DNA of 34,622 bases from Opitutus sp. GAS368 (GTDB taxonomy: Bacteria > Verrucomicrobiota > Verrucomicrobiia > Opitutales > Opitutaceae). The stretch's first letter is position 1. Each line of letters starts with the position of its first letter. Below are positions 13,802-34,622 of this stretch, piece by piece. The stretch is from positions 1 through 34,622 of the forward strand of contig CAMAVZ010000021.1 in the NCBI GenBank assembly GCA_945861645.1, written 5' to 3'. The notes under the pieces are model-generated. The model saw only the letters and a list, made by a program, of their open reading frames with translations, had not been told where the DNA came from and did no database searches. Position numbers and translations under genes: made by a program.

Positions 13802-15568
13802 TCAGTAGCCGATCGCCTTGCTGTCCGCTTTGCGGGGATCGGCCGCACCGTATCTTAAGCCAGTTTTAGGATCTATCGCGATACTCTCACCATCGCCTTG
13901 ATAGCCGCCTTCATAAGAGGCGCGCTCTTTGATGGTTTGGCCTTTCGCTTTGAGCGCCACCGCAGTGTCAGCGCTGAGGCCCTGATGTTCGAATGAGATG
14001 AAGTCAGGCATCCATTGTTGGTGGATGCGGGGAGCTTCGACTGCTTGCGCGACCGCCATGTTAAAATCGATGACGTTGGTGATGATTTGGAAGACGGTAT
14101 TAATAATGGCGGGACCACCGGGGCTGCCGGTGACGAGCACGAGGGCGCCATTTTTGAAAACGAAGGTTGGCGTCATGGAAGAGAGGGGACGCTTGCCGGG
14201 GACGATCGCGTTAGCTTCACCTTGAATGAGCCCGAACATATTAGCCGTGCCGACCTGAGCGGTGAAATCATCCATCTCGTTGTTCATTAAAATGCCCGTG
14301 CCTGGAATAGTGACGCCCGAGCCATAGGCGCCATTCAAAGTGTAGGTATTGCTGACGGCATTGCCGGCCGCATCGACGATGGAGAAATGGGTGGTCTCGG
14401 TAGATTCTGCTATTGGGCGGACCATGAATTTACCAAGCCCCGGCTGGATGGCGGTGGCTGGGGTCGCCCGATTGGGGGAGAAGTCTGTCATGCGGCCTTT
14501 GATATAAGCCGGATCGAGGAGTTGGCTGACAGGAATTTGGACGAAGGCCGGATCGCCTAAATATTCCGCGCGGTCGCGGAAAGCGCGTTTCATTACTTCC
14601 GCAAAAAGGTGATATTTAGCGGCAGAGTTTGAGCCCATCGCGGCAACGTCAAACGGCTCGATCATCCCCAGCATTTGCAGGATGGCGATACTGCCTGAGC
14701 TGGGTGGCGGCATGAGCACAATCTCGTAGCCGCGATATTTTCCGCGCAGGGGGGTGCGTTCTACGGCTTGATAGTTTTTCAGATCAGCGAGGGTGATATT
14801 CCCACCGTGGGCGGACATTGCGGCGGCAATTTTTTGGGCAGTCTCACCCTCATAAAATTCGCGTGGGCCATTTTTTTGCAGGCGAGCCATGGTAGCACCG
14901 AGATCGGCTTGCACCCAGTGTTCGCCGGCTTTCCAGAAGGCACCTTGCTTCAGGTAAATTTTTTGCGAGTCAGCAAACGGGGCGAGCAACTTAGCAAAAG
15001 TACGGAAGGAGGCGGCGTTCGCTTGCGACACGATGTGACCTTCGGCGGCCAGTCGGCGAGCGGGTTCGACTACCTGGGCCCAAGTGACTTTGCCGGAGCC
15101 GTATTTCTGCATTGCCAAAGCGAAGCCAGCGACGGAGCCGGGCACGCCGCTCGCTTGCCAACCCACGGTGGATGAACCCGCGCCTTGGCGTAACTTACCA
15201 TCTTGACCGACATACATGTCGCGAGTGGCGCTCGCTGGTGCGGTCTCGCGATAATCAATCGCGATATCGCGGCCCGTTTCTGGGGTAGCGCCCGCTAAAT
15301 GAATCATCATGAAGCCACCGCCGCCAATGTTGCCGGCAAAAGGATAGACCACCGTCAGCGCGAGGCCGGTGGCGACGGCTGCATCGACCGCATTGCCCCC
15401 TTGCTGTAAAATTTCTACGCCCGCCTGCGAAGCGAGTTCGTGCACGGAAACTACCATGCCGTGTTCAGCTTCAATGGCGGCTCGTTGGGCCGCTAGCGGT
15501 AGAGGCGTGGTCAGTAATGCTAACGCGGCCATTAACGGCGCAGTAATTAAACGGTGGGTAGTGAGCAT
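13802..15568 (-). CDS. ggt: Gamma-glutamyltranspeptidase with Sec signal peptide
   Basis: GGNAVDAAVA, GNIGGGGF, DYRETAP, autocleavage site E|TTHFSIVD, NNEMDDF, PLSSM, GSPGG, AADPR. Signal-like MLTTHRLITAPLMAALALL. Confidence 0.95.
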   Translation of the reverse strand: MLTTHRLITAPLMAALALLTTPLPLAAQRAAIEAEHGMVVSVHELASQAGVEILQQGGNAVDAAVATGLALTVVYPFAGNIGGGGFMMIHLAGATPETGRDIAIDYRETAPASATRDMYVGQDGKLRQGAGSSTVGWQASGVPGSVAGFALAMQKYGSGKVTWAQVVEPARRLAAEGHIVSQANAASFRTFAKLLAPFADSQKIYLKQGAFWKAGEHWVQADLGATMARLQKNGPREFYEGETAQKIAAAMSAHGGNITLADLKNYQAVERTPLRGKYRGYEIVLMPPPSSGSIAILQMLGMIEPFDVAAMGSNSAAKYHLFAEVMKRAFRDRAEYLGDPAFVQIPVSQLLDPAYIKGRMTDFSPNRATPATAIQPGLGKFMVRPIAESTETTHFSIVDAAGNAVSNTYTLNGAYGSGVTIPGTGILMNNEMDDFTAQVGTANMFGLIQGEANAIVPGKRPLSSMTPTFVFKNGALVLVTGSPGGPAIINTVFQIITNVIDFNMAVAQAVEAPRIHQQWMPDFISFEHQGLSADTAVALKAKGQTIKERASYEGGYQGDGESIAIDPKTGLRYGAADPRKADSKAIGY

Positions 15569-15947
15569 GGGAAAGGCTTTCTCTGATGTCGCAGTGCCTC
15601 GAGACGTCAATCCTTGGGTGAGCTCTGCCGCGTCTCCGGCCGTTTTTGTTGATGCCAGCCGTCAGGTCTTAGGAAATACTCTTATTTTATGCCCAAGCAG
15701 TTTTTTTAGATTATCTCATTCAAAAAGCTTGCCTCCGGCGGGAAAGGATAAAGTTTTTATCTTGTTTTCTTTACTATATTACTAATGTATATCTAAGCTT
15801 TAACTCATCCAGGCTATTTTTTATAAAAAACTTCCGCAGTCTCGCCGGCTTTATAACGGGGGAATCAGCAGTTGTGATTGGCGCAATGATCAATACATTT
15901 AGTTCAGGTTTGAGTATTAAAAACTCAAAATAATCTAACACACACCT

Positions 15948-18629
15948 ATGAATAATCAGAACCAAGTATCATCGATCTCGTATGCTACGGGATCCCGGCG
16001 AATCGGCTCAGTCGCTCTTTTCGCCTTTTTAATGTTAGCGGTTAATTCACCTGTCTTCGGGCAAACCGTCGCCCCGGAAGCAGCGAAGAAGAATGATACC
16101 ATTCAGTTGGAAAAATTCGTCACGACCGGGTCACGTTTCAATGACCGTTCGGTGACGCAATCCCCGGTCCCGATCGACGTCATCAGTGGCACCGAGCTCA
16201 AGCAGGGCGGCTACAATGAAACGAGCCAAATGCTGCAAGCGAACATTCCTTCGTTCAACTTCCCGCGTCCATCGTTGACGGATGGTACCGACCATATTCG
16301 CCCTGCCACGCTACGTGGATTGGCGCCGGACCAGACCCTCGTGCTCATCAATGGCAAACGCCGCCACACCAGTGCGCTCGTCAACCTCAACGGTTCAATT
16401 GGGCGCGGTTCAGTCTCGACCGACTTTAACGCTATTCCGGCGGCGATGATCGAGCGCATCGAAGTGTTGCGTGATGGGGCCTCGGCTCAATACGGCTCCG
16501 ACGCTATTGCTGGCGTGATCAATGTTATCTTGCGCAAGGATGCTGGTTGGGGCATGACCCTTGGTTACGGCGTTACGGGCGCTGGTGATGGCGAGGACTA
16601 CAAACTTGACGCCTTTACCGGGGTAGCCTTGGGCGACAAGGGTTCGCTCTTCGTGGATATTTATCTGCGCGATCACGCGCCGACCAATCGGAGCTTGGCC
16701 GATACGCGCCAGCAATATTTTGGCACCAGTACCACCACTGGCTTGCCGGTTGCGATGTCCGGTAATTATGGCTCGGGCACGGGTCTCAGCCCAGCGAACG
16801 GCACGCTCGATCCGCGTGAGGCGACGGTTAATCGCATCAACCACCGTTTTGGTGACCCGATGACGAAGGACCAAGGCCTTTGGCTCAATGGTGATTATCC
16901 GCTAGCGGAAAATCTTGATCTTTATTTCAACGGTGGCACTAGCACTCGTCACGCGAATGGCGCGGGCTTTGCGCGTCGCGCCGGCGACGATCGCACGGTT
17001 CGGAGCATTTGGCCTAATGGTTTTCTGCCGTACATCGATAGCGTCGTAAAAGATTTCTCTTTTAGCACTGGCGTTAAAGGCAAGGCGTCCAATTGGAATT
17101 ACGACCTGAGCACCATCGCCGGGACCAATACGCTTGATTATCGCACCTCTAACTCCGCCAACGTCACGTTGGGCGGCGCGAGCGGTACCGCCTTCTACGA
17201 TGGCCAGCTGAAATTTGCCCAAATGGGAGCCAACCTAGATCTCACGACTTCATTTAATACGGGTTTTGCCACGCCGCTTAAATTCGCGGTCGGCGCGGAA
17301 GTTCGCGCGGAAAGATACACCATCAAAGCTGGTGAAGCTGATTCCTACCGCAATGGTGGCGTCACTATTATTGGTGGGCCCAGCAACGGTGGCCTCGCCG
17401 CGGTCGGGGCCCAGGTGTTCCCGGGCTTCAAGCCTTCAGATGCCGGCTCCCACAACCGCCGCGCTAAGTCGGTCTATCTCGACCTCGAGCAAAATCTGAC
17501 GGATCGCTGGTTGGTTTCCCTCGCGGCTCGCTTCGAGGACTATACGGACTTCGGCAATAACAGCACGGTCAAGCTCGCCTCCCGCGTAGAGCTGACCAAT
17601 GAATTCGCACTGCGCGGCTCGGTCAGCACGGGCTTCCGCGCGCCGCACTTAGCGCAACAATGGTTCAGCGCCACGTCCACTAATTTTATCGGTGGCATCC
17701 CTTACGATATTCTCACCTTCCCCGTCAGTAATGCGGCGGCCAAAGCTTTAGGCGCCTCCAGCTTGAAGCCCGAGGAATCGACCAATATCAGCGGCGGGAT
17801 CACCTGGAATTCAAAGAAATCCGGTTTCTCTGCCTCCGTGGATATCTACAATATCGAGATCAAGGATCGCATCGTGCTATCCTCTAACTTCACCGGCGCT
17901 CCGATCATCGCGTTGCTCGCAACGCAGGGCATCACGGGCGTGGGCGGCGGTCGCTACTTCACCAACGCAATTGATACTACCACCAAGGGGGTTGATGTGA
18001 GTGGTCGTTACGTCCTGACCACCAGCACATCGGGTAAATTCACCTTCACCGGTGGCTTTAATCACAACACGACGAAGGCCAACCGGATCAAGCAGGCTCC
18101 GGCTAATCTCGCCGCGATCACCACCACGCCGCTTTTTGATCTCACCGAAACCATCCGCCTCGAAAAGGGTCAACCGCGCGATAATATTAATCTCTCGGCC
18201 GGCTGGGAATACGGTAAATTCTCTTTCTTGGCCCGCCAAGTGCGCTACGGCGAAGTTTCAGCGGTCACTTTTACCAGCGCCACTCAAGCCAATATCGATG
18301 TGCTGACTCCCGGTTATAATGTCGAGTTCGCCGCCGCTGTCCCTGGTTCCGTGGGTGGCACGACCACTAATAAACAAGTCATCCAAACTTGGGGCGCTAA
18401 GTGGCTCACTGACCTTGATGTGACTTATCATTACACAAAGAACATCATGATCTCCGTTGGCGCGAATAACCTCCTCGACGTCTATCCTGACGAGAATATC
18501 CGTTCGAAGGTTTTCAATGGCGCGGCCTATGGCGGCACGGACAACGCGGGTATCTTCCCTTATAACAGTATTTCACCGTTCGGCTTTAACGGCGTGTTTT
18601 ATTACACCAAGCTGAGCCTGAAGTTCTAA
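15948..18629 (+). CDS. TonB-dependent outer-membrane receptor (TBDR1)
   Basis: Signal peptide, TonB-box-like IQLEKFVTTGSR, plug motifs LRGLAPDQTLVLINGKR and IERIEVLRDGASAQYGSDAIAGVINVIL, C-terminal aromatic residue (KLSLKF). Confidence 0.95.
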   Translation: MNNQNQVSSISYATGSRRIGSVALFAFLMLAVNSPVFGQTVAPEAAKKNDTIQLEKFVTTGSRFNDRSVTQSPVPIDVISGTELKQGGYNETSQMLQANIPSFNFPRPSLTDGTDHIRPATLRGLAPDQTLVLINGKRRHTSALVNLNGSIGRGSVSTDFNAIPAAMIERIEVLRDGASAQYGSDAIAGVINVILRKDAGWGMTLGYGVTGAGDGEDYKLDAFTGVALGDKGSLFVDIYLRDHAPTNRSLADTRQQYFGTSTTTGLPVAMSGNYGSGTGLSPANGTLDPREATVNRINHRFGDPMTKDQGLWLNGDYPLAENLDLYFNGGTSTRHANGAGFARRAGDDRTVRSIWPNGFLPYIDSVVKDFSFSTGVKGKASNWNYDLSTIAGTNTLDYRTSNSANVTLGGASGTAFYDGQLKFAQMGANLDLTTSFNTGFATPLKFAVGAEVRAERYTIKAGEADSYRNGGVTIIGGPSNGGLAAVGAQVFPGFKPSDAGSHNRRAKSVYLDLEQNLTDRWLVSLAARFEDYTDFGNNSTVKLASRVELTNEFALRGSVSTGFRAPHLAQQWFSATSTNFIGGIPYDILTFPVSNAAAKALGASSLKPEESTNISGGITWNSKKSGFSASVDIYNIEIKDRIVLSSNFTGAPIIALLATQGITGVGGGRYFTNAIDTTTKGVDVSGRYVLTTSTSGKFTFTGGFNHNTTKANRIKQAPANLAAITTTPLFDLTETIRLEKGQPRDNINLSAGWEYGKFSFLARQVRYGEVSAVTFTSATQANIDVLTPGYNVEFAAAVPGSVGGTTTNKQVIQTWGAKWLTDLDVTYHYTKNIMISVGANNLLDVYPDENIRSKVFNGAAYGGTDNAGIFPYNSISPFGFNGVFYYTKLSLKF

Positions 18630-18789: not shown

Positions 18790-19815
18790 ATGGAATCGCA
18801 CGCGGTGGTCTTCACCGGCCCCCATCAAGTCGCTTACCAGGAAATTACCTCCCCTGAACCGGGGCTCGAGGATGTGGTGGTCGATGTGCATCATTCATGG
18901 ATTAGCAACGGGACGGAGGGCTCGTTCCTCCGCGGCGAGCGAATTTCTGGCGATGTTGCTTGGCGGCTGGGCGATCCCGCGCCTTTTCCCCTGATTGCCG
19001 GTTATCAAAAAGTTGGTCGAGTACGGCAGGTCGGGGCCGACGTGCAGCGTTTTGCCCCAGGGGATTGGGTGTTCGCCTCGATGAGTAAAGTGTGCGGCAT
19101 GTTTGATAATCAATTTGCCGGACACGTTTCTCCCGCCGTCTGCGCGCAGGGTGCGTTGCTGGCGTTGCCGGCAGGAATTGACCCCTTGGCTTTTGCCGGA
19201 CTCGTGTTGACGCAGGTGGGTTATAATTGTGGCACCCGTTCTCCGATTCAGTCGGGTCAACTGGCCGTCGTCCTCGGCGATGGTCTCGTGGGGCAATGGG
19301 CGGGCCAAACCCTCGCGCAGCTCGGGGCAAAAGTAGTGTTGGTGGGCCGACACCCTGATCGCTTGGCGCGATTTTCTCGTTTTGGGTCCACTGTTTTGAG
19401 TGGCACTGATAACGGTCTGGCCGCCGTCCGCGCCCTCGGCAGTGAGCGAGTGCAAGTGTTGGTGGAAACGGTGGGTAGCGCGCGCGGGCTGCAAGACTAT
19501 CTCCCCGCAATGGCGCGGGGTGGTCATATGGTCATCGCGGGTTTTTATTCCCCAGCGGGCGCCGTCAATTTACAGGAAAGTCTCCAGCAATTTCGTAACG
19601 CCGAAATTTCTTTTGACCTCGCCTCAGGCGCGACGGCCGCACGATTGCAAACGACGCTCGAGTGGATCGCAGACGGTCGGCTTGATTCGCTGGGTTGTTT
19701 GACGCACCGCTTCCCCGTGGAGCGAGCCGCGGAGGCTTGGGCCTTGATCGAGAGTAAGCGCGAAGCCGTCTTGGGGGTCGTGCTGGACTGGCCGGCTTCA
19801 CGCCTTAAGCTCTAA
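18790..19815 (+). CDS. MDR-superfamily dehydrogenase, BchC-like subgroup lacking canonical Zn ligands
   Basis: GroES-like N-domain with ISNGTE and GYQKVG in place of Cys and GHE; Rossmann motif VLGDGLVG; C-terminal THRFP. Confidence 0.85.
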   Translation: MESHAVVFTGPHQVAYQEITSPEPGLEDVVVDVHHSWISNGTEGSFLRGERISGDVAWRLGDPAPFPLIAGYQKVGRVRQVGADVQRFAPGDWVFASMSKVCGMFDNQFAGHVSPAVCAQGALLALPAGIDPLAFAGLVLTQVGYNCGTRSPIQSGQLAVVLGDGLVGQWAGQTLAQLGAKVVLVGRHPDRLARFSRFGSTVLSGTDNGLAAVRALGSERVQVLVETVGSARGLQDYLPAMARGGHMVIAGFYSPAGAVNLQESLQQFRNAEISFDLASGATAARLQTTLEWIADGRLDSLGCLTHRFPVERAAEAWALIESKREAVLGVVLDWPASRLKL

Positions 19816-22278: not shown

Positions 22279-24756
<2,478 letters not shown>

Positions 24757-24895
24757 AACTAAGGGTAAGGGGAACTGAACTCACGCAACCTGCCAAGCGG
24801 TCGCGAGTGAGGCCAGTTTAATTTGCCTTGAAACCGTCGCGGCATTGACCTGTTAGGTAGGTTAATTTTATCTGGGAAGACTGTTAAACGCGCTT

Positions 24896-25606
24896 ATGCC
24901 TCTGCTCGAAGTTAAAAACCTGATTAAGACCTACGCGGCGCCAGGGGGTCAGCGGCCCGACGCCGGCGCTGTTCATCGGGTGGTGGAGGTTGCTTCATTC
25001 ACTTTAGAAGCCGGTGAGCAGCGAGCGCTGCGCGGCGAAAGCGGATCGGGGAAAACGACTTTTCTTCATCTGCTCGCAGGCATCCTCGCTCCTGATAGCG
25101 GCTCTATCTTGCTGGCTGGAATAGAGATAACGCAACTAAGCGAGGCGGGGCGTGATCGGCAACGGGCGGAGAGCATTGGCTATATTTTTCAGACCTTTAA
25201 TTTACTCCAGGGGCATACGGCTTTAGAAAATGTGGAACTCGGGATGGCCTTTGGTCGTGGGGTAGATCGCGCGCAAGCCGGAGTTTTATTACAGCGGGTG
25301 GGGCTGGGCGATAAACTCGGTCATTATCCTCGCCAGCTTTCCACGGGTCAGCAGCAACGGGTGGCGGTCGCCCGCGCCTTGGCTAATCGCCCCAAGATGG
25401 TCCTTGCCGATGAACCCACGGGCAATCTCGATCGCCGCAATGCTCGGGAAGCGCTGCAACTGATTCGCGAGGTATGTCGCGAATCCGGCGCGGCGTTGTT
25501 GCTGGTGAGTCATGACGAGCGGGTGCTCGCGCAGTTTGAGCAAATGCAGGATTTCATGATGATCAACCGGGCTTTAGCCACACCGCCGACTGTTTTTCCG
25601 CGATGA
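24896..25606 (+). CDS. LolD/MacB-type ABC ATP-binding protein (ZrgB-like)
   Basis: GESGSGKTT, YIFQTFNLL, LSTGQQQRVAVARAL, ADEPTGNLD. Confidence 0.92.
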   Translation: MPLLEVKNLIKTYAAPGGQRPDAGAVHRVVEVASFTLEAGEQRALRGESGSGKTTFLHLLAGILAPDSGSILLAGIEITQLSEAGRDRQRAESIGYIFQTFNLLQGHTALENVELGMAFGRGVDRAQAGVLLQRVGLGDKLGHYPRQLSTGQQQRVAVARALANRPKMVLADEPTGNLDRRNAREALQLIREVCRESGAALLLVSHDERVLAQFEQMQDFMMINRALATPPTVFPR

Positions 25607-26808
25607 TCTTTAACCTTATCTATCGTTCATTGCGCCAGCACTTGCTGGCGACGCTGGTGACCGCGGGTAGCATTGCGTTGGCGAGCGGTTTATTACTGAC
25701 GGTGTGGGTGGTGAAGACGCAGTCGCAGGCGGTATTTGCGGCGACCAATTCTGGTTTCGATGCGGTACTCGGGGCGCGCGGGTCAAAGTTGCAACTCGTG
25801 CTGAATGCAATTTTTCATCTCGAGGCATCGCCCGGCAATCTCACGGCGGCTGATTTTGAAATGATCCGGCATCAGCGCGAGGTGAAGACGGCGATCCCGT
25901 TGGCGGTCGGGGATAATTATCAAGGGTGGCGCATCGCGGGCACGATCGAATCGTTATTCACCGAGGTGGAATATATGCCGGGCCATCGTTATCAGGTCGG
26001 CCGCGGCGAGCGGTTTTTTCAAATCGGCAAACTTGAAGCCGTGGTCGGAAGTTATGCGGCCAAAAAACTTGGCTGGCGGGTTGGGACGACTTTCCATCCT
26101 TCGCATGGCCTCATTTTCAATCCCCAGGCAGAGCAGCATGAGGAGACTTATACGGTGGTCGGGGTCTTGGCCCCGACCAACACGCCGGTTGATCGCGTGA
26201 TCTGGATTCCGTTGGAGGGAGTGCAAACCATGAAGGGGCATAATCCGCTGGCGGCGACTGAGCTGAGTGCGGTCCTCGTGCAATTACGGGCCCCGGAGGC
26301 CGGGATGCTGCTGAATTTGCGGCTCAATAGCCCAGGCGGGCGGCTGACCTTTGCCTATCCGATTGGAACAATTGTGGCGGAATTATTTAATAAAATAGCC
26401 TGGTTTGATCAGGTGCTGACGCTCGTCGCTTGGCTTGTCGCGGTGGTGGCGTCGGGCTCGGTACTGGTGAGCATCTATAATTCGATGAGTGCCCGCGCGC
26501 GGGATATCGCCATTTTGCGCGCCCTCGGCGCCCGTCGGCGGACGGTCTTTGGGGCAGTCGTCGGGGAGGCGGCCGTGATCGGTCTGCTTGGATCAACCGC
26601 GGGTTTCGCCGTCTTTGCTGGGCTCGCTGAGTCGGTGGCGGCCCTCATTCAGGCGCAGACCGGGGTCGTGCTTGAGCCGCTGCAATGGAATCTAGTTTTT
26701 TGCTGGGGCCCCGCCGTTTTTGTCGGGTTGTGTATCCTTGGCGGGTGCGTGCCGGCGTTTAAGGCTTATCGGGTGTCGGTCGCTGAGACGATTGCTCCGG
26801 TGTCTTGA
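25603..26808 (+). CDS. MacB/FtsX-type ABC permease (ZrgC-like)
   Basis: GARGSKLQLVLNAIFH, AIPLAVGD, HPSHG, IAILRALGA; 4 TM plus large periplasmic loop; ATGA overlap with the ATPase. Confidence 0.88.
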   Translation: MIFNLIYRSLRQHLLATLVTAGSIALASGLLLTVWVVKTQSQAVFAATNSGFDAVLGARGSKLQLVLNAIFHLEASPGNLTAADFEMIRHQREVKTAIPLAVGDNYQGWRIAGTIESLFTEVEYMPGHRYQVGRGERFFQIGKLEAVVGSYAAKKLGWRVGTTFHPSHGLIFNPQAEQHEETYTVVGVLAPTNTPVDRVIWIPLEGVQTMKGHNPLAATELSAVLVQLRAPEAGMLLNLRLNSPGGRLTFAYPIGTIVAELFNKIAWFDQVLTLVAWLVAVVASGSVLVSIYNSMSARARDIAILRALGARRRTVFGAVVGEAAVIGLLGSTAGFAVFAGLAESVAALIQAQTGVVLEPLQWNLVFCWGPAVFVGLCILGGCVPAFKAYRVSVAETIAPVS

Positions 26809-26864
26809 TCAGGGGTTGATGATCTTTAATCTGCGCCAAAGAGTGATCGCCCCGGCCAAATCCT

Positions 26865-26892
26865 TTGACGCGGCTAAGATCCTGAGTACTTT
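26865..26892 (+). promoter_or_regulatory. Putative leaderless sigma70-like promoter
   Basis: TTGACG (26865-26870) - 16 nt - TACTTT (26887-26892), 6 nt before ATG 26899. Confidence 0.6.
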
Positions 26893-26898
26893 GCCGAC

Positions 26899-27396
26899 AT
26901 GAAGTGTTCTCGGCGTCTCCTCAGTTTATGGTTGAGCCTCTGCGTGATCGGTTTGCCCATCGTTGGCGCGGCCGCGGTCGAATATGAGTTGGTTGGTTTC
27001 GATCGTTTGGCCTCTTTCACGTTCACCGCGCCAGAATTCAATAATGCGGATCCCAAGGCGCTACCACCATCGGGCGCTGATCAAATTCCGGCTAAGATCA
27101 AGGCGCTCGATCAGCAGAAAGTGGCGGTGACGGGTTATATGTTGCCGGTTCGGATGGAGGCCGGGTTGGTTAAGGAACTGCTTTTAGTTAAAGACCCCAT
27201 GATGTGTTGCTATGGCGTCATGCCGAAAATCAACGAGTGGGTGGTGGTCAAAATGATCGGCGCTGGCGTGAAGCCGCTGATGGACGTGCCGATTACTTTT
27301 GAAGGTAAACTTCGCGTGGGCGAGATGTACGAGAACGGTTATCTGACCGGCGTCTATTTGCTCGAGGGCGAAAAGCTGGTGGGCGTAAAAGGCTAA
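26899..27396 (+). CDS. DUF3299-like exported OB-fold protein (ZrgD-like)
   Basis: Signal peptide, KALDQQKVAVTGYMLP, CCYGVMPKINEWVVV, PITFEGKL; follows the matching ABC pair. Confidence 0.75.
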   Translation: MKCSRRLLSLWLSLCVIGLPIVGAAAVEYELVGFDRLASFTFTAPEFNNADPKALPPSGADQIPAKIKALDQQKVAVTGYMLPVRMEAGLVKELLLVKDPMMCCYGVMPKINEWVVVKMIGAGVKPLMDVPITFEGKLRVGEMYENGYLTGVYLLEGEKLVGVKG

Positions 27397-27445
27397 CCAG
27401 CCCGCGCCGCCTGGCCTCGGAGTGCTGAGACAACGGCTCCCGCCT

Positions 27446-27901
27446 TCAGCGCGAAATATCCCGCTGAGTCAGCACCTTGTAGCCGCGCGTATTGAGCGCA
27501 CTCGCCGCGAGATCATTATCTTCCACACTGAGTGCGAGAGCCGATTTTCCCTCGGGCCGCATAAAAAAAGAATAGAGATAATGAATGTTAATTTCCACCG
27601 TGAGCAGCGCCTTCAGCACGCCTTGCAGTTGCGATTCATCGGAAATCTCTACGGCCAGAACTTCGCATTCGGTGTAAGCAAAATTAGTGGCCGCCATCAA
27701 TTCGCGGGCGCGGTCAGGGTCATCCACGATTAATCGATCAATCGCGCAATCCGTCGTGTCGAGAGTGGTCATCGCCATCACGTGCACGTTATGCTTCGCG
27801 AGTAAGGCCGTCAGATCATAAAGTTGGCCGACGCGATTCGGTAAAAAAACCGAGAATTGTTTTACCGGATCAGTGGCGAGCGGGGTGGCGGTGTCAGACA
27901 T
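27446..27901 (-). CDS. Tandem ACT-domain (amino-acid-binding) protein
   Basis: KQFSVFLPNRVGQL...IDRLIVDDPDRA...INIHYLYSF; two-ACT architecture; start at ATG 27901. Confidence 0.88.
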   Translation of the reverse strand: MSDTATPLATDPVKQFSVFLPNRVGQLYDLTALLAKHNVHVMAMTTLDTTDCAIDRLIVDDPDRARELMAATNFAYTECEVLAVEISDESQLQGVLKALLTVEINIHYLYSFFMRPEGKSALALSVEDNDLAASALNTRGYKVLTQRDISR

Positions 27902-28038
27902 AAACGGCGACTGCTGTATGTCGTGGTGGCGGGTGGCGGTCAATGCCGACGTGCGTAGCCGATAGGAGGCTTGAGTGTCGTGCGGGGAGCACCCAACGTG
28001 CGGCATGGTTTTTTATCAGCAGATTTCCGCGCTCTAGG

Positions 28039-28953
28039 ATGAAGCCGTCCGATGTGCATCAAGCGGTCGCACAGCGCGCAAATAACAGTGCGCGCTTGGT
28101 GCTGCGGGGCATTGGGCTAAACGCCGTGCTGGCGGTGGTGAAATTAGCGGGGGGCATATTCGGCCACACCTATGCGCTGATTGCGGATGCAGCGGAGTCC
28201 ATGCTCGATATCTTATCTTCGACACTGGTGTGGGCGGGTTTTCGGGTGGCGGCGCGTCCGCCGGACGCGAATCATCCTTACGGGCACGGCAAAGCGGAGC
28301 CGCTCGTTGGGTTGGTGGTCGCCTTATTTATTTTTGTGATGGCCGGTTGGGTCGCCTCGCATGCCATCCATGAAATTCGGACGCCCCATCAAGGTCCGGC
28401 CTGGTGGACGTTATTAGTGTTAGCGGGCGTGATCGTTGCAAAAACATGGTTCTCGCGGCGCATGGGGATGGCGGGCGAAGAGGTGGGCAGCACCGCCCTG
28501 GGCCTTGAGGCCATGCATCATTGGTCTGATGCCATCACTTCGGGCGCCGCCTTTGTGGGTATTAGTATCGCGCTATGGGGCGGCGCTGGTTGGGAAACCG
28601 CCGATGACTGGGCCGCTTTATTTGGCTGTGTGATTATCGCCTTCAATGGTTTTAGTATGTTTATGCAGGCCCTGGGCGATGTGATGGACACGGCCGCGCC
28701 GCAGAATTTCGAAAATGAGGTGCGGGCGCTCGCCCTCGCGGTGTCCGGCGTGCACGCGCTCGATAAAGTGCGGATGCGCAAAAGCGGGCTCAGTCACCTG
28801 GTGGATATTCAGGTGCGGGTGGATGGTGATTTAACGGTGCGCGAAGGCCACGGCATCGCGCACGCTGTCAAGGATGCGCTCATTGCTTCGGCGAGTCATC
28901 GTATCAGTGATGTGACGGTGCATATCGAGCCCGCCGCTGGCCCCGGCCTGTGA
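28039..28953 (+). CDS. Cation diffusion facilitator (FieF-like) metal transporter
   Basis: ALIADAAESMLD, PPDANHPYGHGKAE, HHWSD, EGHGIAH, VTVHIEP. Confidence 0.93.
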   Translation: MKPSDVHQAVAQRANNSARLVLRGIGLNAVLAVVKLAGGIFGHTYALIADAAESMLDILSSTLVWAGFRVAARPPDANHPYGHGKAEPLVGLVVALFIFVMAGWVASHAIHEIRTPHQGPAWWTLLVLAGVIVAKTWFSRRMGMAGEEVGSTALGLEAMHHWSDAITSGAAFVGISIALWGGAGWETADDWAALFGCVIIAFNGFSMFMQALGDVMDTAAPQNFENEVRALALAVSGVHALDKVRMRKSGLSHLVDIQVRVDGDLTVREGHGIAHAVKDALIASASHRISDVTVHIEPAAGPGL

Positions 28954-29177
28954 CTGGCGGCTGCGGTCTTAACGCTAGGGCGCCTCGGCCTTAGTAGCTA
29001 AGGAGTTAGCTCGGCGGGAGCCTTACCTATAACTACGCCATCTCAGCAGGGGAGTTTAGCTAGACAATAATAGAACGAGTGGTTCATTCAGGATCTTTGT
29101 ACATTATCTTGTGGGTCTAACGCGGCTGATCGCAGGCCCCATCAATCCATCTTCCTTCCTATCATCACCCTTAACGC

Positions 29178-30050
29178 ATGCGTTGCTTTTGGCTCCTTTT
29201 CCTTGCCCTCGGTTTAGTCGGCTTGAGCCTGACAACGCGGGGGTCTGGGCCGGCTACGCGGGGGAGTTTCCTCTTTACGAGCGGCGGTCATAAATTGACG
29301 GTGTGGCATTATCGTCCGGCTGGGACAGCTGCGGACGCGCCGGTGCTGTTTGTGATCCATGGGGTGGGGCGCAATGCGGAGGAATATTTAAACGATTGGG
29401 TGGAACTGGCTGAGCAGAAAAAAGTACTACTGATAGTGCCAGAGTTCTCTAAAACTGAATTTCCCGGTGAAGAGGCTTTTAATTCTGGCAATTTATTTGA
29501 TGCCAGCGGCCAGCCGGTGCCGCGGGCCCAATGGTCCTATAGCATGATCGAGCCGATCTTCGACGCCGTTCGGGAGCGCTCGGGCAGTCAGCGCAACGAT
29601 TACATGATCTATGGCCATTCGGCGGGGGCGCAATTCGTCCAGCGATTTTTGTATTTTATACCAGAGGCGCGGGTGACTCGTCTCATCGCGGCCAATGCGG
29701 GTTGGTATATGCTGCCCGAATGGACCACTGCTTTTCCCTACGGACTTAAAGGGACTGTTTTAAACGAGGCGGCGCTCCGGACCGCATTTGCGCGCCCACT
29801 GGTGGTGCTGTTGGGCGAGGCCGATATTGATTCACAGCACAAAAGCCTTCGCCATACCCCGGAAGCTGATGCGCAAGGACTCTATCGCTTTGCGCGCGGG
29901 CACTATTTCTTTGCGCACGCTAAGGCAGCGGCCGCTGCGCTGAACACGCCTTTTAATTGGACGTTAGCTACCGTGCCTAATGTTGAGCACTCGAACCAGG
30001 GAATGGCCCCATCGGCGCTGCAACACCTCTTGCCACTTTCCCGTCTTTAA
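29178..30050 (+). CDS. pahZ1: Secreted alpha/beta serine hydrolase, poly(aspartic acid) hydrolase-1 (PahZ1)-like
   Basis: Signal peptide followed by GSFLFT, LFVIHGVGRNA, IEPIFD, YGHSAG (Ser at 29619-29621), AANAGWY, PYGLK, LLGEADID, TPEAxxQG, HSNQGM. These match, in order, motifs I recall from Sphingomonas sp. KT-1 PahZ1; no alignment was run. Confidence 0.75.
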   Translation: MRCFWLLFLALGLVGLSLTTRGSGPATRGSFLFTSGGHKLTVWHYRPAGTAADAPVLFVIHGVGRNAEEYLNDWVELAEQKKVLLIVPEFSKTEFPGEEAFNSGNLFDASGQPVPRAQWSYSMIEPIFDAVRERSGSQRNDYMIYGHSAGAQFVQRFLYFIPEARVTRLIAANAGWYMLPEWTTAFPYGLKGTVLNEAALRTAFARPLVVLLGEADIDSQHKSLRHTPEADAQGLYRFARGHYFFAHAKAAAAALNTPFNWTLATVPNVEHSNQGMAPSALQHLLPLSRL

Positions 30051-30070
30051 CTTAATTAACCCTAACACCT

Positions 30071-33000
30071 ATGAACCTAACACCCTATACACTTCGTCGC
30101 GCGAGCAATCTCGCCCTGCTGGCTTTTGCCGCCAGCCTTTCTTTAGCCCAAGCTCAATTGAGCCCGACCGCGCCGGCGGCCCAGAGCTCCAAAGAAGAGA
30201 CGGTGGTGCTCCAGACTTTCACCGTCACGGGTTCTAATATTAAGCGCCTCGACGCGGAAAAGAGCCTCCCGGTCACAGTCATCGATCAAGAGGCCATGGA
30301 AGTTCGCGACGCTGCGCAAGCGGCGGATCTGCTTACTTCGCTCCCGCAAGTCACCGGTTTGCCTGGCAACGAAACCGCCACGCTGGGCGCCACCGCGCGC
30401 GGTGACAACGCCACGGTTTCATTGCGCGGCATCCCTTCCAGCAACACGCTCGTCTTGTTGAATGGTCGCCGGCTCGCCCCGCACCCGATCAGTCAATCGG
30501 AGGCTGGGGTCCCCACGCTCTCAACCAATGTGAACCAACTGCCGAATCGCGGCCTCGATCATATCGACGTGTTGCGCGATGGCGCTTCCTCGATTTACGG
30601 CACCGACGCGGTGGCGGGGGTTATTAACTATATTACGCGCCGTAACTATAACGGCACCGAGCTGCAATTACGTTACGGGGAGACTAATTATCGCGACGGG
30701 GCGGAATTTCGCTCCACCCTCACGCATGGCTTCGATTTTTCTAATGGGAAGGGTCGCGGCATGATCGTGGCTGATTACTATACGCGCCAAGCGATGTTTG
30801 CGCGGGATCGGGAGTTTTCAGCTGAGGCCGACAACACCTACCGCGCCCCGGCGCCGTGGAATGTCGCCACGAACACCACGTTCAATCTGCGCTCCGCCAC
30901 CAGCGAATATGGTAATTATCTGCTCGGCACGATCACGGCGACCAACGCCTATGGGGCGGTCACCGGCTTCACCGGGGCGCGGCCAACGGGCGTGCCGACG
31001 ACCCTCGCTTCCGCGACGGGCGTATTTTATCTCGCCCCCAATGGCAATGGGCTAGGCGGCGCGCAATTTCTAACCGCGGTGCCCTCCCGGGCTGGGATTA
31101 CGCATGACTATTACTGGAATAATAACGCCTACCGCGTGATCCAGCCTCAGTCGAAGCGCTATAATATTTTCGCCAGCGGCGAGTACGATCTGAATAGCCG
31201 CATTACTTTATTCACTGATCTGAGTTTCTATCGCGCTGATTCGCTGACCTATCGTGAGCCGGACGGGATCACGCAGAGCACCGATGGCTTCATTATCGTG
31301 CCTGCCACCAATCCGTGGAATCCCTTTGGCACGCGCTTCTGGTCCACCACTGGCGCCGCTAACACCGACGGCACCGCCCGCCTGACGGGGACGCCTTCAG
31401 CTGTCTCCATTACCAATAAACGCCTGACTGATTTGATGGATCGCACGGCCACGGTGACCAATATCATTTATCGCGGGGTCGCCGGGCTGCGCGGCAAGCT
31501 TTTCAACAACTGGACCTGGGAGAGCGCGGTACTCTATTCGCAAGCTCACGTCACCGATGAAGAGGCAGGCCCGAGCCGGAAGAGCCTGCTCATCGCCGCC
31601 ATTAACCAGACCGATCCTTTGAAGGCTTTTAATCCTTTCACCCGGACCTTTGCCGTGCAGAACGGCGCCCTCGTGGTGACGGGTCCGTACGTTAATTCTT
31701 CGATGGTGCAGTCGGGCTTCCGCTCAAAATTTATTCGTGAGGGCATCACAAAATTGGCGAGCGGCGACGTCCGCGCGGCCGGCGATGTGCTGTCGATCTG
31801 GGGCGGCAACGCGATCGGCGCGGCAGTCGGGGGCGAATGGCGCTACGAAGGCTATGACGATATGCGTCCAGCCTACGCCGGCTTAAATCCGGCTGGCTCC
31901 GGTTTAGACGGATCCACTAACGATTTCCTCGGGTTCTCCCCCAACCCGGACACCCACGGTACGCGTCACGTGGAGGCGGCTTACGTGGAGACCAACCTAC
32001 CGCTGGTGGGTAATAAATTCCGCCTGCCGCTGGTGCGCTCCCTTGAGTTGTCGGCCTCGGCGCGCTTCGAGAGTTACTCTGACTTTGGTGATACCACCAA
32101 ACCCAAGCTCGGGGTTAACTGGCGGCCTTTTTCTTGGGCGATGGTGCGCAGTTCCTACAACGAGGGGTTTCATGCGCCTAACTTAGCGCAACTTTTCACC
32201 GGTACCTTGATTCGCACCGTGACGGGCAGCACGGATACTTATCGCAGCGGCGTTACCGGTCTGACGACCGACGGCCCCTCGAATCGCCGGAGCGTGGCCG
32301 CGGGTAATCCCAATCTTCAACCGGAAGAATCCAAGGGTAAGTCGGCGGGAATCGTGATCGAGGTGCCGCTGGTTAAAGGCCTATCCTTCGGAGTTGATTA
32401 CTGGGAGATTGCGCAAACCAATGTCATCGCTTCTGCGGGCTCGATTACCGATGACAACTTAGCGCTGAACGTAGCCACGCAGGCCGCGCTCGCGTCCGGT
32501 CAGGCGATTGGCTCGATCGATTTAGGCTCCGGCACCGCAAATTATAAGGGGGATGGCGCCGTCGTGCGCTTGGCGGTCACGCAGGCCGATCGTGATTCCT
32601 TCACGCTCTACAATTCCACCCGGACCGCCGGTAATCAAAAGGCAGTGGTCGGCGCGATCGATATCCTGCGCACGACTTATTTCAATAAAGCATCGGAATT
32701 TGTGAACGGCTTTGATTTCGATTTGAACTACCGTTTCCCCGTCACCGCCATCGGCAATTTCACGTTTAACACGACGTGGACTAAGCTCATCGACTTCTAC
32801 GCTTATAACGCCGCTGGGGCCTCGCGCACTAATCTGCTCTGGACCAATTCTTCTACAGTCGGCGGCGCTACTCCGGTCTGGCGCGGTAGCGCTTCGCTCG
32901 GTTGGCGGCGCAATGCTTGGAGCGCCGGCCTCTCGGCTTATTATATCGGCGACTATAGCGATAGCGGGGCCACGACAACCCAAGCGATCTATGATTCGCT

Positions 33001-33274
33001 TGGTGCGCCGAACTACATCGTGCCCGTGGTCACGAATAGCACCACCGTCTATCGGTACCGCGTCAGTGATTCGATTACCTACAACGCGAATATCTCCTAT
33101 CGTTTGCGCACAAAAAATAAGTGGACCAATGATACCACGATTCGCCTCGGGGTTATTAATCTGCGCAACACCAAGCCACCGCTCTCCAGTGATTCACGCG
33201 GCTATGATCCTGCGATCTATAATTTGATGGCCCGCGGTCAGTCCTGGTCGCTCCAACTGACCAAGAAGATCTAA
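30071..33274 (+). CDS. Large TonB-dependent receptor (TBDR2, 1067 aa)
   Basis: Signal peptide, VVLQTFTVTGSNIKR, LRGIPSSNTLVLLNGRR, IDVLRDGASSIYGTDAVAGVINYI, ARFESYSDFGDTTKPK, GNPNLQPEES. Confidence 0.95.
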   Translation: MNLTPYTLRRASNLALLAFAASLSLAQAQLSPTAPAAQSSKEETVVLQTFTVTGSNIKRLDAEKSLPVTVIDQEAMEVRDAAQAADLLTSLPQVTGLPGNETATLGATARGDNATVSLRGIPSSNTLVLLNGRRLAPHPISQSEAGVPTLSTNVNQLPNRGLDHIDVLRDGASSIYGTDAVAGVINYITRRNYNGTELQLRYGETNYRDGAEFRSTLTHGFDFSNGKGRGMIVADYYTRQAMFARDREFSAEADNTYRAPAPWNVATNTTFNLRSATSEYGNYLLGTITATNAYGAVTGFTGARPTGVPTTLASATGVFYLAPNGNGLGGAQFLTAVPSRAGITHDYYWNNNAYRVIQPQSKRYNIFASGEYDLNSRITLFTDLSFYRADSLTYREPDGITQSTDGFIIVPATNPWNPFGTRFWSTTGAANTDGTARLTGTPSAVSITNKRLTDLMDRTATVTNIIYRGVAGLRGKLFNNWTWESAVLYSQAHVTDEEAGPSRKSLLIAAINQTDPLKAFNPFTRTFAVQNGALVVTGPYVNSSMVQSGFRSKFIREGITKLASGDVRAAGDVLSIWGGNAIGAAVGGEWRYEGYDDMRPAYAGLNPAGSGLDGSTNDFLGFSPNPDTHGTRHVEAAYVETNLPLVGNKFRLPLVRSLELSASARFESYSDFGDTTKPKLGVNWRPFSWAMVRSSYNEGFHAPNLAQLFTGTLIRTVTGSTDTYRSGVTGLTTDGPSNRRSVAAGNPNLQPEESKGKSAGIVIEVPLVKGLSFGVDYWEIAQTNVIASAGSITDDNLALNVATQAALASGQAIGSIDLGSGTANYKGDGAVVRLAVTQADRDSFTLYNSTRTAGNQKAVVGAIDILRTTYFNKASEFVNGFDFDLNYRFPVTAIGNFTFNTTWTKLIDFYAYNAAGASRTNLLWTNSSTVGGATPVWRGSASLGWRRNAWSAGLSAYYIGDYSDSGATTTQAIYDSLGAPNYIVPVVTNSTTVYRYRVSDSITYNANISYRLRTKNKWTNDTTIRLGVINLRNTKPPLSSDSRGYDPAIYNLMARGQSWSLQLTKKI

Positions 33275-33278
33275 TCCG

Positions 33279-33379
33279 GCAAATTTTGCGGGGCAGGGGG
33301 CGTGATTAAATCACGCGGCGGGGCGCTACGATTAAATGAGTAGCGACCCCTCTGACGGTGACCCTGCCCGCGTTTTTGC
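33279..33379 (+). other. Multi-branch structured intergenic element (RNA structure or REP composite)
   Basis: Outer stem 33288-33298/33362-33371 encloses two inverted repeats, each centred on GATTAAAT, and is followed by GTTTTTG. Confidence 0.6.
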
Positions 33380-33417
33380 TGAACGTAGCTCAATGGTGTT
33401 AAATTTAGTTCGTCTTT

Positions 33418-34622
33418 ATGATGTCTGACGCTGCGCCGCTTCGCGTGCCTATCCCGAGTGGAACCAGCAGCAGCCAAAAGCAGTTGCTGGCCTGTACCCT
33501 CGTGGTGGTGGTGGCCAGTTTGCTGGCTTCACTCATTCAGAATTCTGGTGGGCGGGTGCAGGTCATGGATCTCAAGATCCCCACCCAGAATGGGCAGTGG
33601 TTGGTCGCCGATCTTTTCCGGCCCCGCTCTGCTACGAGTGAGCAACCGGCTCCGCTGGTTATTGTCGTACCCGGGTTTCAGCGCTCCAAAGAATCGCTGG
33701 CTAATATTTCCCTCGAACTGGCGCGGCGGGGCCTAGTCGTCATCGCGCTCGATCCGTACGCTCAGGGCGGATCAAGTTCCTCGGCGACCGCCCAGTCCGC
33801 CACCACCGAAGGTTATGGGTTATTCGCGGTGGTGAACTACGCCGCCAACACGAATAATCTTAACTATATTGACCAAGCGAAAATCGGCGCGACTGGTCAT
33901 TCGGCGGGGGGCAACGCGGTGCTGCAAGGCGCTAGTTATTTTGGCCAAGAGGCTTTGCGCTTAGGTCGCCCGAGTAAATTGCATGCCGTGTACATCTCGG
34001 GTTACGCGCTTTCGCTCACGGCGAAAATTCTCAAGAATGTCCGGTCCCACGTCGGTTTTAGTTACGCTTTTTTTGATGAAGGCGCCTACCGCAATGAATT
34101 ACAAAATGGCGATATGCGTCACGCTCCAGAGGCGCTGCGCTTAATTAATTCAGCGCTTGATCCGGCGGAAGACGCGCCCACTGAGGTCGCGCTGAATCAT
34201 TACTACGGGACGGCCGCAGCGCGCAATTTACGCGTGGTACATAATGAGCGGACGCTGCATCCCTTCCAGCCGTACAGTCGCGAAGCCACGGCGCACCAGC
34301 TCGATTATTTTACCCAGGTCTTTGGTCTCACCGGCGATCTCGCTAGCGATGATCAAGTGTGGCTGTGGAAAGAATTACTGACCCTGGTGTCGCTCGTGGC
34401 TGCGTTTCTCGGCTTGGTCCCCCTGGCGCATTTACTGCTCACTCATCTGCCATATTTTCAACAAGTCGTCCGACCACTGCCAGTGGCCCCGCCTGCCCCG
34501 TCGGGCGCGGGGCGCTATTTATTTTGGGGTCTGCTCATCTTGGGGGCTTTGGTGGCGTGTTTCTCTTATATTCCCCTGACCGAGTTAGCCCAAAAAATAT
34601 TTGTGGCCGCCGCCGGTCGCGC
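33418..34622 (+). CDS. Membrane-anchored alpha/beta hydrolase, 3'-truncated by window end (absent from ORF track)
   Basis: Read manually from ATG 33418 with no stop to the window end: N-terminal hydrophobic anchor, PAPLVIVVPGFQRSKE, ELARRGLVVIALDPY, ATGHSAGG (Ser at 33901-33903), FFDEG, TLHPFQPY, then TM helices from WLWKELLTL. Confidence 0.9.
   Translation, partial: MMSDAAPLRVPIPSGTSSSQKQLLACTLVVVVASLLASLIQNSGGRVQVMDLKIPTQNGQWLVADLFRPRSATSEQPAPLVIVVPGFQRSKESLANISLELARRGLVVIALDPYAQGGSSSSATAQSATTEGYGLFAVVNYAANTNNLNYIDQAKIGATGHSAGGNAVLQGASYFGQEALRLGRPSKLHAVYISGYALSLTAKILKNVRSHVGFSYAFFDEGAYRNELQNGDMRHAPEALRLINSALDPAEDAPTEVALNHYYGTAAARNLRVVHNERTLHPFQPYSREATAHQLDYFTQVFGLTGDLASDDQVWLWKELLTLVSLVAAFLGLVPLAHLLLTHLPYFQQVVRPLPVAPPAPSGAGRYLFWGLLILGALVACFSYIPLTELAQKIFVAAAGR

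Follow-up and report, generated by a model that had tools for sequence, protein, structure and literature searches.

A candidate TonB-dependent locus for the use of beta-aspartyl peptides in Opitutaceae, built around a PahZ1-family hydrolase

The window analyzed here is a 34,622-nt stretch of DNA from Opitutus sp. GAS368 (GenBank assembly GCA_945861645.1, contig CAMAVZ010000021.1), which represents one entire contig (C21) of the source genome (G000; 2.3 Mb, 84% complete). At its 3' end lie three co-oriented genes that encode a PahZ1-family alpha/beta serine hydrolase (gene 1), a TonB-dependent receptor (gene 2) and a membrane alpha/beta-hydrolase (gene 3) (Table 1). The open reading frames (ORFs) and the short gap between pahZ1 and the receptor gene were confirmed as given in a preliminary description of this DNA. 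Gene 3 is truncated by the assembly, window and contig being one and the same; in a 96% identical relative, the full length is 625 residues. In the closest relatives, gene 3 is followed on its 3' side by a signal-peptide-bearing gene of the gamma-glutamyltranspeptidase (GGT) family and often then by a porin gene, and contig C93 of the source genome opens with the last 205 residues of this GGT-like gene, 93.7% identical to the relatives' copy. As the start of C93 matches the gene that succeeds gene 3 in the relatives, the operon order in the source genome is most likely pahZ1, receptor, membrane hydrolase, GGT-like, and the locus does appear to continue past the window, as had been anticipated. 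No porin match was found in the source genome; in L023 (8214-9508), the porin encoded 3' of the GGT-like gene occupies two separate frames. The tetratricopeptide-repeat histidine kinase and response regulator located upstream in the relative G004 are absent from the intergenic region before gene 1, and no close match to this pair was found elsewhere in the 84% complete source genome.

Table 1. Features of the locus at the 3' end of the window.
Feature	Coordinates	Strand	Residues or basis
PahZ1-family alpha/beta serine hydrolase, 290 aa (gene 1)	29178..30050	+	S148, D216, H271, R237
pahZ1-receptor gap, 20 nt	30051..30070	+	ORF ends
TonB-dependent receptor, 1067 aa (gene 2)	30071..33274	+	plug and barrel domains
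Structured spacer, two inner hairpins	33277..33381	+	folding; single genome copy
Membrane alpha/beta-hydrolase (gene 3), 401 of ~625 aa, no stop	33418..34622	+	S162/D220/H281
Upstream intergenic region	28954..29177		comparison with relative G004

By alignment, gene 1 is assigned to the PahZ1 family, with the catalytic triad and the specificity arginine intact. At E<=0.001, its only PDB matches were 6VE6, which is PahZ1 of Sphingomonas sp. KT-1 (E 7.5e-74, residues 28-280), 9O7U, a second poly(aspartic acid) hydrolase-1 entry (E 5.3e-60), and 3D0K; a Pfam scan of the gene gave no match. Over residues 28-280, about half of the residues aligned with the KT-1 enzyme match. In the latter, S157, D225 and H280 form the triad and R246 is the specificity, or substrate-positioning, arginine (PMC13017698); these residues align with S148, D216, H271 and R237 of gene 1, and the basic pair H230/H231 of KT-1 corresponds to H221/K222. 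R237 is invariant in 129 of 129 other sequences in one comparison and in 77 of 77 in another, and the GHSAG motif occurs in both gene 1 and gene 3. All four homologs tested at ~40% or more identity to KT-1 were active on thermal polyaspartate, and two of them have an isoelectric point (pI) as low as that calculated for gene 1 (6.9); membership in the PahZ1 class, as defined in that report, requires measured hydrolysis of thermal polyaspartate (PMC13017698). In PahZ1 of Pedobacter sp. KP-2, cleavage is confined to beta bonds, alpha bonds being left intact; the enzyme requires a trimer and shows a preference for junctions from L-Asp to D-Asp (PMC4456602). The earlier term "secreted hydrolase" goes further than the data: gene 1 has a signal-peptide-like N-terminus, and the characterized homologs are periplasmic (PMC13017698). 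At E<=0.001, the PahZ family comprises 2912 representatives.

Gene 2 contains plug and barrel domains and reached no curated NCBIfam cut-off. The PahZ1, receptor, membrane hydrolase and GGT-like proteins were searched in the same 301 Opitutaceae genomes; receptor orthologs were defined by >=60% identity (two candidates scored per genome, with 17 weaker matches outside the set), and linkage was defined as a distance within 10 kb. The genomes are mostly drafts and are kin, so the counts are not independent and no p-value is claimed. A PahZ-like gene was detected in 91 genomes and a receptor ortholog in at least 84; the figures for the GGT-like gene and the membrane hydrolase were 100 and 40. Among PahZ matches at >=53% identity, 26 of 28 were linked to a receptor ortholog, which bears out the association with this receptor clade expected in the preliminary description. 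A PahZ-like gene was present in 74 of 84 genomes with a receptor ortholog versus 17 of 217 without one, and only one of the 64 receptor paralogs listed had a PahZ gene nearby. The GGT-like gene was linked to 34 of 86 receptor orthologs, and at least one of PahZ and GGT-like to 52 of 86. A PahZ-like gene was held by 38 of the 40 genomes with the membrane hydrolase, but only 17 of the 40 membrane-hydrolase matches were near PahZ or the receptor. More telling than these linkage counts is a re-pairing. Two PahZ subfamilies lie on either side of a long branch (support 1.0), and both occur, in differing gene orders, next to one and the same receptor clade; in the tree, the receptors neighboring the second subfamily are nested within those neighboring the first. 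The module is loose, and the membrane hydrolase is optional in it. Receptor net charge was also considered as a sign of polyanion binding and proved uninformative, the clade being no more basic than other receptors of the source genome. As a separate observation, the second PahZ subfamily is accompanied in L026-L029, L079 and L271 by DctA, as many as three M13 peptidases and a receptor of the ECF/FecR signalling form.

To describe recurring partners, 100 regions were chosen around matches, of which 94 were tallied and 40 hold both receptor and PahZ. In these 40 loci, the hydrolase and peptidase partners were GGT-like (19), membrane hydrolase (10), IaaA (8), M13 (5), M14 (4) and D-aminoacylase-like (2). 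The three-gene unit was therefore not upheld as a conserved core, the GGT-like gene being the more constant member. Carriers comprised DctA (17), NhaC-family (8) and DASS (3), one of which was present in 27 of 40 loci; further partners were kinase (16), phosphoenolpyruvate (PEP) carboxykinase (9), ECF sigma factor (7) and GntR (7). The carrier families filling this role are unrelated to one another and are known for C4-dicarboxylates or aspartate, NhaC less strictly. The DctA neighbors pass the NCBIfam cut-off, and the Opitutaceae carriers tested score as DctA and not GltP. The iaaA gene often directly adjoins pahZ1, and its product has E. coli isoaspartyl peptidase as its nearest match (E 3e-86); a glycosylasparaginase reading of this Asparaginase_2 neighbor was rejected, its match being far weaker (E 7e-30). 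A CphZ/MpaA reading of the M14 neighbor was likewise set aside: the best matches were M14 peptidases resembling cytosolic carboxypeptidases (CCP), MpaA reached E 0.48, and no cyanophycin dipeptide hydrolase was among the matches listed. PEP carboxykinase also flanks unrelated receptor paralogs, so some neighbors mark the chromosomal site rather than a pathway. No carbohydrate-active enzyme or SusD was found among the recurring neighbors scanned.

For a view beyond the order, the best 80 of 548 confirmed PahZ loci were considered; dropping 16 labelled Opitutales or unplaced Verrucomicrobiota left 64. Their flanks hold a receptor in 14 cases (8 co-oriented and within 300 nt of the match), a DctA/GltP-family carrier in 9, PahZ2 in 6, aspartase in 2 and IaaA in 2, so that the isoaspartyl peptidase, PahZ2 and aspartate-capable carriers predicted beforehand do occur beside homologs. 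PahZ2 and aspartase neighbors were found in Proteobacteria, with aspartase-subfamily genes in L132 and L157. The fullest pathway, in L156, comprises ECF, FecR, receptor, pahZ1, iaaA and pahZ2, the PahZ2 matching 7LJH at E 1.4e-93; in L114, PahZ1 and PahZ2 both belong to a SusD-linked locus. Genes of the D-aminoacylase-like and FAD oxidoreductase (DAO family) types are found repeatedly in the vicinity of homologs. In a 100-sequence receptor tree, most receptors from outside the order and from the marine membrane-hydrolase loci described below group with the window clade (support 1.0), and six do not; since the sequences were picked by neighborhood, the root is midpoint and the controls are five other receptors of the source genome, this tree is taken as supporting evidence only. 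Fusion partners in 41 long PahZ representatives included M14 (5, one by an AstE/AspA domain only), CapA (4), GGT (3), beta-lactamase family (3), M20/M28 (2) and cyanophycinase (2); a further PahZ-CapA fusion occurs in L063, and such fusions are mentioned in PMC13017698. CapA has a homolog in the peptide epimerase MslH (PMC8179263), a relationship that suits the handling of D-residues but suits polyglutamate as well. A marine Opitutales region, L141 (722-15927), holds a receptor, NhaC, iaaA, three PahZ-domain genes, two cyanophycinase-like genes below cut-off and a CapA gene.

The GGT-like protein, whole in the G004 and G016 loci, shares ~30% identity with canonical GGT and scores 339.8 against TIGR00066, for which the cut-off is 357.85. 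Like GGT and class IV cephalosporin (glutaryl) acylase, it belongs to the Ntn fold family, and the nucleophile Thr is kept in 32 of 32 subfamily members. In contrast to canonical GGT, the donor pocket (Arg114, Asn411, Gln/Glu430, Asp433) is not kept and is altered toward the acylase type. With numbering taken from an alignment to 2E0W and to the canonical GGT encoded in the window, the residues at E. coli Arg114, Asn411 and Gln430 are each replaced in 32 of 32 sequences; position 433 is Asn in 30 of 32, position 484 is Ala in 25 of 32, and 31 of 32 have gained an Arg at 461. In E. coli GGT, D433N abolishes transpeptidation and creates glutaryl acylase activity, which Y444A and G484A raise 50-fold; Arg-to-Met or Arg-to-Leu changes leave weak hydrolysis, and one Pseudomonas GGT transfers beta-aspartyl groups (PMC8062742). 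From the D433N/G484A-type changes and the loss of Arg114, we infer that the GGT-like protein is a hydrolase whose target is a dicarboxylic acyl group that has no free alpha-ammonium. Both an isoaspartyl (isoAsp) residue within a peptide chain and a succinyl group answer this description. The subfamily could then be the natural counterpart of the engineered glutaryl acylases.

Gene 3 was examined through models of near-identical full-length relatives (predicted local distance difference test, pLDDT, 84.5 and 79.7), which consist of an N-terminal transmembrane helix, an alpha/beta domain and a multi-helix membrane domain. The alpha/beta domain has a structural match at Z 21.1 (root-mean-square deviation, rmsd, 2.9; 209 aligned), and the Ser, Asp and His residues are invariant in 85 of 85 sequences. 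The top two structural matches of the C-terminal membrane domain are SagB-SpdC (Z 10.9, rmsd 4.3, 213 aligned) and Rce1 (Z 9.0, rmsd 5.0, 206 aligned), compared as representatives of the CPBP fold, the next match having Z 6.3; this likeness stays below the safe level for helical bundles. This domain gave no Foldseek match at E<=0.001 and no CPBP Pfam match, and only unnamed clusters in the Atlas. CPBP/Abi catalytic motifs are EExxxR, FxxxH and HxxxN; across 72 sequences, no conserved Glu-Glu pair and one invariant His were found. The CPBP-type likeness of the model is suggestive only. SpdC is described as a non-catalytic scaffold for a hydrolase (bioRxiv 2020.05.21.109470); in gene 3, scaffold and hydrolase would share one chain, and the hydrolase would be an alpha/beta serine enzyme. 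Lasso isopeptidase and PETase readings were rejected, being far below cut-off or at fold level only. Among 80 marine metagenome loci seeded with a gammaproteobacterial membrane-hydrolase homolog, the neighbors were M14 peptidase (15), D-aminoacylase-like (11), DASS carrier (8) and receptor (6), and L126 carries the same neighbor set plus PahZ1. These shared neighbors place the membrane hydrolase in the same catabolic neighborhood as an optional member, and its substrate is the least certain. In the metagenome loci L161, L165, L187, L190, L191 and L193, a conserved set of LysR, receptor, DASS, D-aminoacylase-like, M14 and membrane hydrolase occurs without PahZ.

The 143-nt spacer between genes 2 and 3 folds at -61.2 kcal/mol (z -3.95), and 0 of 200 shuffles were as stable, in agreement with the structure noted earlier. 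It aligns well in only the 3 closest of 9 relatives compared and was not called by a terminator scan; it is possibly a stabilizer or partial terminator. A repetitive extragenic palindromic (REP) element or miniature inverted-repeat transposable element (MITE) was rejected, the source genome containing one full copy. Scans for sigma-70 promoters (0 sites versus 2.6 expected) and terminators (5 versus 4.7 expected) were uninformative.

Considering these patterns, we hypothesize that the locus imports beta-(iso)- and D-aspartyl peptides and hydrolyzes them to aspartate, a role that its gene content makes moderately probable. The system would be a TonB-dependent one for short acidic peptides joined via Asp beta-carboxyls, that is, through isoaspartyl bonds often beside D-residues. 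The receptor, to judge from its linkage, would take oligomers into the periplasm, where PahZ1 would cleave internal beta-L-Asp amide bonds, as shown for homologs on a synthetic substrate. Its active-site residues suggest that the GGT-like Ntn amidase may strip N-blocked isoAsp, succinyl or fumaryl ends; the membrane hydrolase, the weakest step of the scheme, may be an optional accessory for blocked or acylated ends. A DctA-, NhaC-, DASS- or DcuC-type carrier would then import aspartate and small products, and IaaA would split the remaining beta-Asp dipeptides; these family functions are established, and their coupling here is presumed. Carbon would enter metabolism via oxaloacetate and PEP carboxykinase. 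The enzyme set converges on omega-linked and D-configured acidic residues, and its aspartate-specific members (PahZ1, PahZ2, IaaA, aspartase, DctA) outweigh the glutamate-type ones. IsoAsp and D-Asp form in aged proteins, and the most economical natural source would be isomerized, racemized protein debris in dissolved organic nitrogen. A broader reading, which we consider doubtful, is that aquatic bacteria share a pathway for an abundant, undescribed class of beta-linked, L/D-mixed aspartate polymers or peptides, with the locus as the Verrucomicrobia importer and, as part of the same doubtful proposal, two new enzyme types: a natural GGT-family dicarboxylic-acyl amidase that acts at internal isoAsp of N-blocked peptides, and a serine hydrolase joined in one chain to a CPBP membrane scaffold that is dead as a protease.

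Several observations weigh against a role in aspartyl peptide use. The linkage falls off as PahZ identity drops, a receptor ortholog being nearby for only 1 of 16 matches at 45-52% and 10 of 67 below 45%. Conversely, only 37 of 86 receptor orthologs have PahZ inside 10 kb, and for 34 of 86 both PahZ and GGT-like are missing nearby, a figure inflated by draft contig breaks. Neither PahZ2 nor aspartase occurs in the 40 loci with receptor and PahZ; in the 84% complete source genome, PahZ2 (M20/M28) gave no tblastn match at E<=1e-8 and no aspartase was found above cut-off. The iaaA and dctA genes of this genome lie on contigs other than that of the locus, and carrier and regulator are both outside the locus in the source genome itself. 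No marker gene is seen in 34 of the 64 loci from outside the order, and no PahZ match in any of the 80 marine membrane-hydrolase loci. DctA and PEP carboxykinase suit malate or succinate equally well as aspartate, and glutamate-type partners (GltS carrier, AbgT, CapA, CCP-like M14) are also found near this receptor family.

The last point bears on an unlikely alternative, in which the natural substrate is poly-gamma-DL-glutamate or gamma-glutamyl peptides and beta-Asp cleavage is a side activity on a one-carbon-shorter analogue. A GGT-family partner, the PahZ-CapA fusions (4 of 41 long representatives, plus L063), M14 neighbors closest to cytosolic carboxypeptidases, and GltS, AbgT and CapA genes beside this receptor or its paralogs would all suit it, as would the L-to-D bond preference. 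Against it, the GGT-like protein lacks Arg114, Asn411, Gln430 and mostly Asp433, the residues that bind the gamma-glutamyl donor; the tested Opitutaceae carriers are DctA above cut-off; and IaaA, PahZ2 and aspartase are aspartate-directed. We also judge it quite unlikely that the locus acts on a C4-dicarboxylate polymer or conjugate lacking aspartate nitrogen, for example poly(beta-L-malate), a natural polymer, or succinylated or fumarylated peptides. The amine-free dicarboxylic acyl pocket of the GGT-like protein and the DctA and PEP carboxykinase neighbors are compatible with such a substrate, and weak NCBIfam matches agree with the derivation of PahZ1 from polyhydroxybutyrate-depolymerase-like esterases (PMC4456602), but the hydrolases found as partners (IaaA, PahZ2, Ntn, D-aminoacylase-like) are amidases, and two loci have aspartase.

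Degradation of non-ribosomal acidic peptides or lipopeptides with iso-Asp, D-Asp or hydroxy-Asp (cyanopeptides, amphiphilic siderophores), the membrane hydrolase taking lipid-tailed forms, would account for the FecIR signalling versions of the receptor, for the D-aminoacylase-like, pyridoxal-phosphate fold-III (weakly BhcC-like) and beta-lactamase-family neighbors, and for a hydrolase fused to an SpdC/Rce1-like membrane domain. Each such partner is a minority, however, no iron-handling genes were seen in the core, and the SpdC/Rce1 match is below the level considered safe, which makes this explanation very unlikely. Cyanophycin-derived material, suggested as a substrate in the preliminary description, is disfavored and now appears highly improbable. 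PahZ fusions P0310 and P0376 carry a domain above the cyanophycinase cut-off, the cyanophycinase-like genes of L141 lie beside receptor, iaaA and pahZ, the habitat is freshwater, and IaaA clusters with cyanophycinase in scavengers (PMC10206079). Yet no cyanophycinase was found in the source genome or 13 same-genus genomes, the family was above cut-off in 5 of 301 genomes and in 0 of the 40 loci with receptor and PahZ, and no arginine-catabolic partner recurs; PahZ1 of KP-2 left alpha bonds uncut, as it did both of the Asp dimers on which it was tried (PMC4456602). Just as improbable is that the genes inherited a common chromosomal position and have no substrate in common: about half of the receptor orthologs are without PahZ nearby and PEP carboxykinase also sits beside unrelated paralogs, but the repeated re-pairing with different PahZ subfamilies, carriers, regulators and gene orders, and the similar sets in other phyla, speak against it.

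With the aspartyl-peptide role as the preferred reading, the locus can be set beside known systems. Gene 1 is homologous to PahZ1 of the KT-1 pair and of KP-2, with the triad and the R246 equivalent retained. PahZ2 orthologs accompany PahZ1 homologs in those 6 loci from outside the order, whereas the source genome and the 40 Opitutaceae loci are without PahZ2 and have the GGT-like amidase, IaaA and membrane hydrolase instead. TonB utilization loci, known as carbohydrate utilization containing TonB-dependent transporter (CUT) loci or polysaccharide utilization loci (PUL), combine a receptor, periplasmic hydrolases, an inner-membrane carrier and a dedicated sensor in one cluster. The PUL-type design proposed earlier holds in that the receptor is conserved beside degradative enzymes, carrier and regulator (two-component, ECF/FecR or GntR), and fails in that the core has no glycoside hydrolase or other carbohydrate-active enzyme and no SusD, its enzymes being amidases and peptidases. 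Cyanophycin scavenging clusters (cyanophycinase with IaaA, IadA or CphZ) resemble it in the IaaA partner and the rare PahZ-cyanophycinase fusions; they differ in that no cyanophycinase was found in the source genome, the genus sample or the loci, and PahZ1 specificity is unsuited. On sequence grounds, the locus would work like a PUL for a non-sugar polymer and would belong with neither the PahZ1/PahZ2 pair nor the cyanophycin clusters.

A literature search found no PahZ1 linked to a TonB receptor or gene cluster, supplements and most Hiraishi, Tabata and Brambley papers being outside its scope; in the main texts of PMC13017698 and PMC4456602, the words "TonB" and "operon" do not occur. Substrate panels or locus maps for PahZ1 may have been published before. 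New here are the counts, the membrane hydrolase, the altered GGT-like enzyme and a Verrucomicrobia/Proteobacteria form that has no SusD. The only polymer from which PahZ1 enzymes are known is man-made; a conserved importer-hydrolase-carrier locus makes their natural role testable, with named genes, a predicted product (aspartate) and cultured Opitutaceae carriers (L083, L085). If correct, the proposed function would tie common freshwater Verrucomicrobia to the turnover of isomerized, D-amino-acid-rich dissolved nitrogen and may explain polyaspartate degradation in rivers.

Parts of the window were detected in 17 freshwater RNA runs, whose contigs carry no strand, level or single-transcript information. 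Run X1 was set aside as likely DNA carry-over, because 30 of 30 bins were covered flatly, intergenic ones included. In three runs from three studies, contigs cover most of the receptor gene. In runs X2, X4 and X9, the contigs listed are patchy over genes 1 and 3, and none of them crosses the pahZ1-receptor junction, which says nothing either way. One RNA-run contig (32863-33490) crosses the spacer into gene 3.

Near the receptor paralogs, L034 (5115-16508) and L035 (4718-14607) hold a cluster of a sigma54 regulator, a CapA-domain gene, a paralogous receptor (~41%), M20, an N-formylglutamate-amidohydrolase-family gene and AbgT, joined in L034 by a porin; this cluster is a candidate gamma- or D-glutamyl counterpart of the locus. 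In L245, L247 and L248, a GltS-type sodium/glutamate symporter and a D-aminoacylase-like gene lie 5' of tandem receptors, one of the window clade and one paralog. Elsewhere in the window, positions 22279-28953 hold H+-pyrophosphatase, ABC/FtsX permease, DUF3299, ACT-pair and cation-efflux genes as a conserved upstream site, and the same gene set also lies beside the different receptor paralog of L034. Two minus-strand ORFs of 393 and 210 aa (11141-12322 and 18895-19527) have no Pfam match above cut-off. At 13802-18629, the canonical GGT, which passes TIGR00066, is divergent from a second, unrelated TonB receptor of 893 aa.

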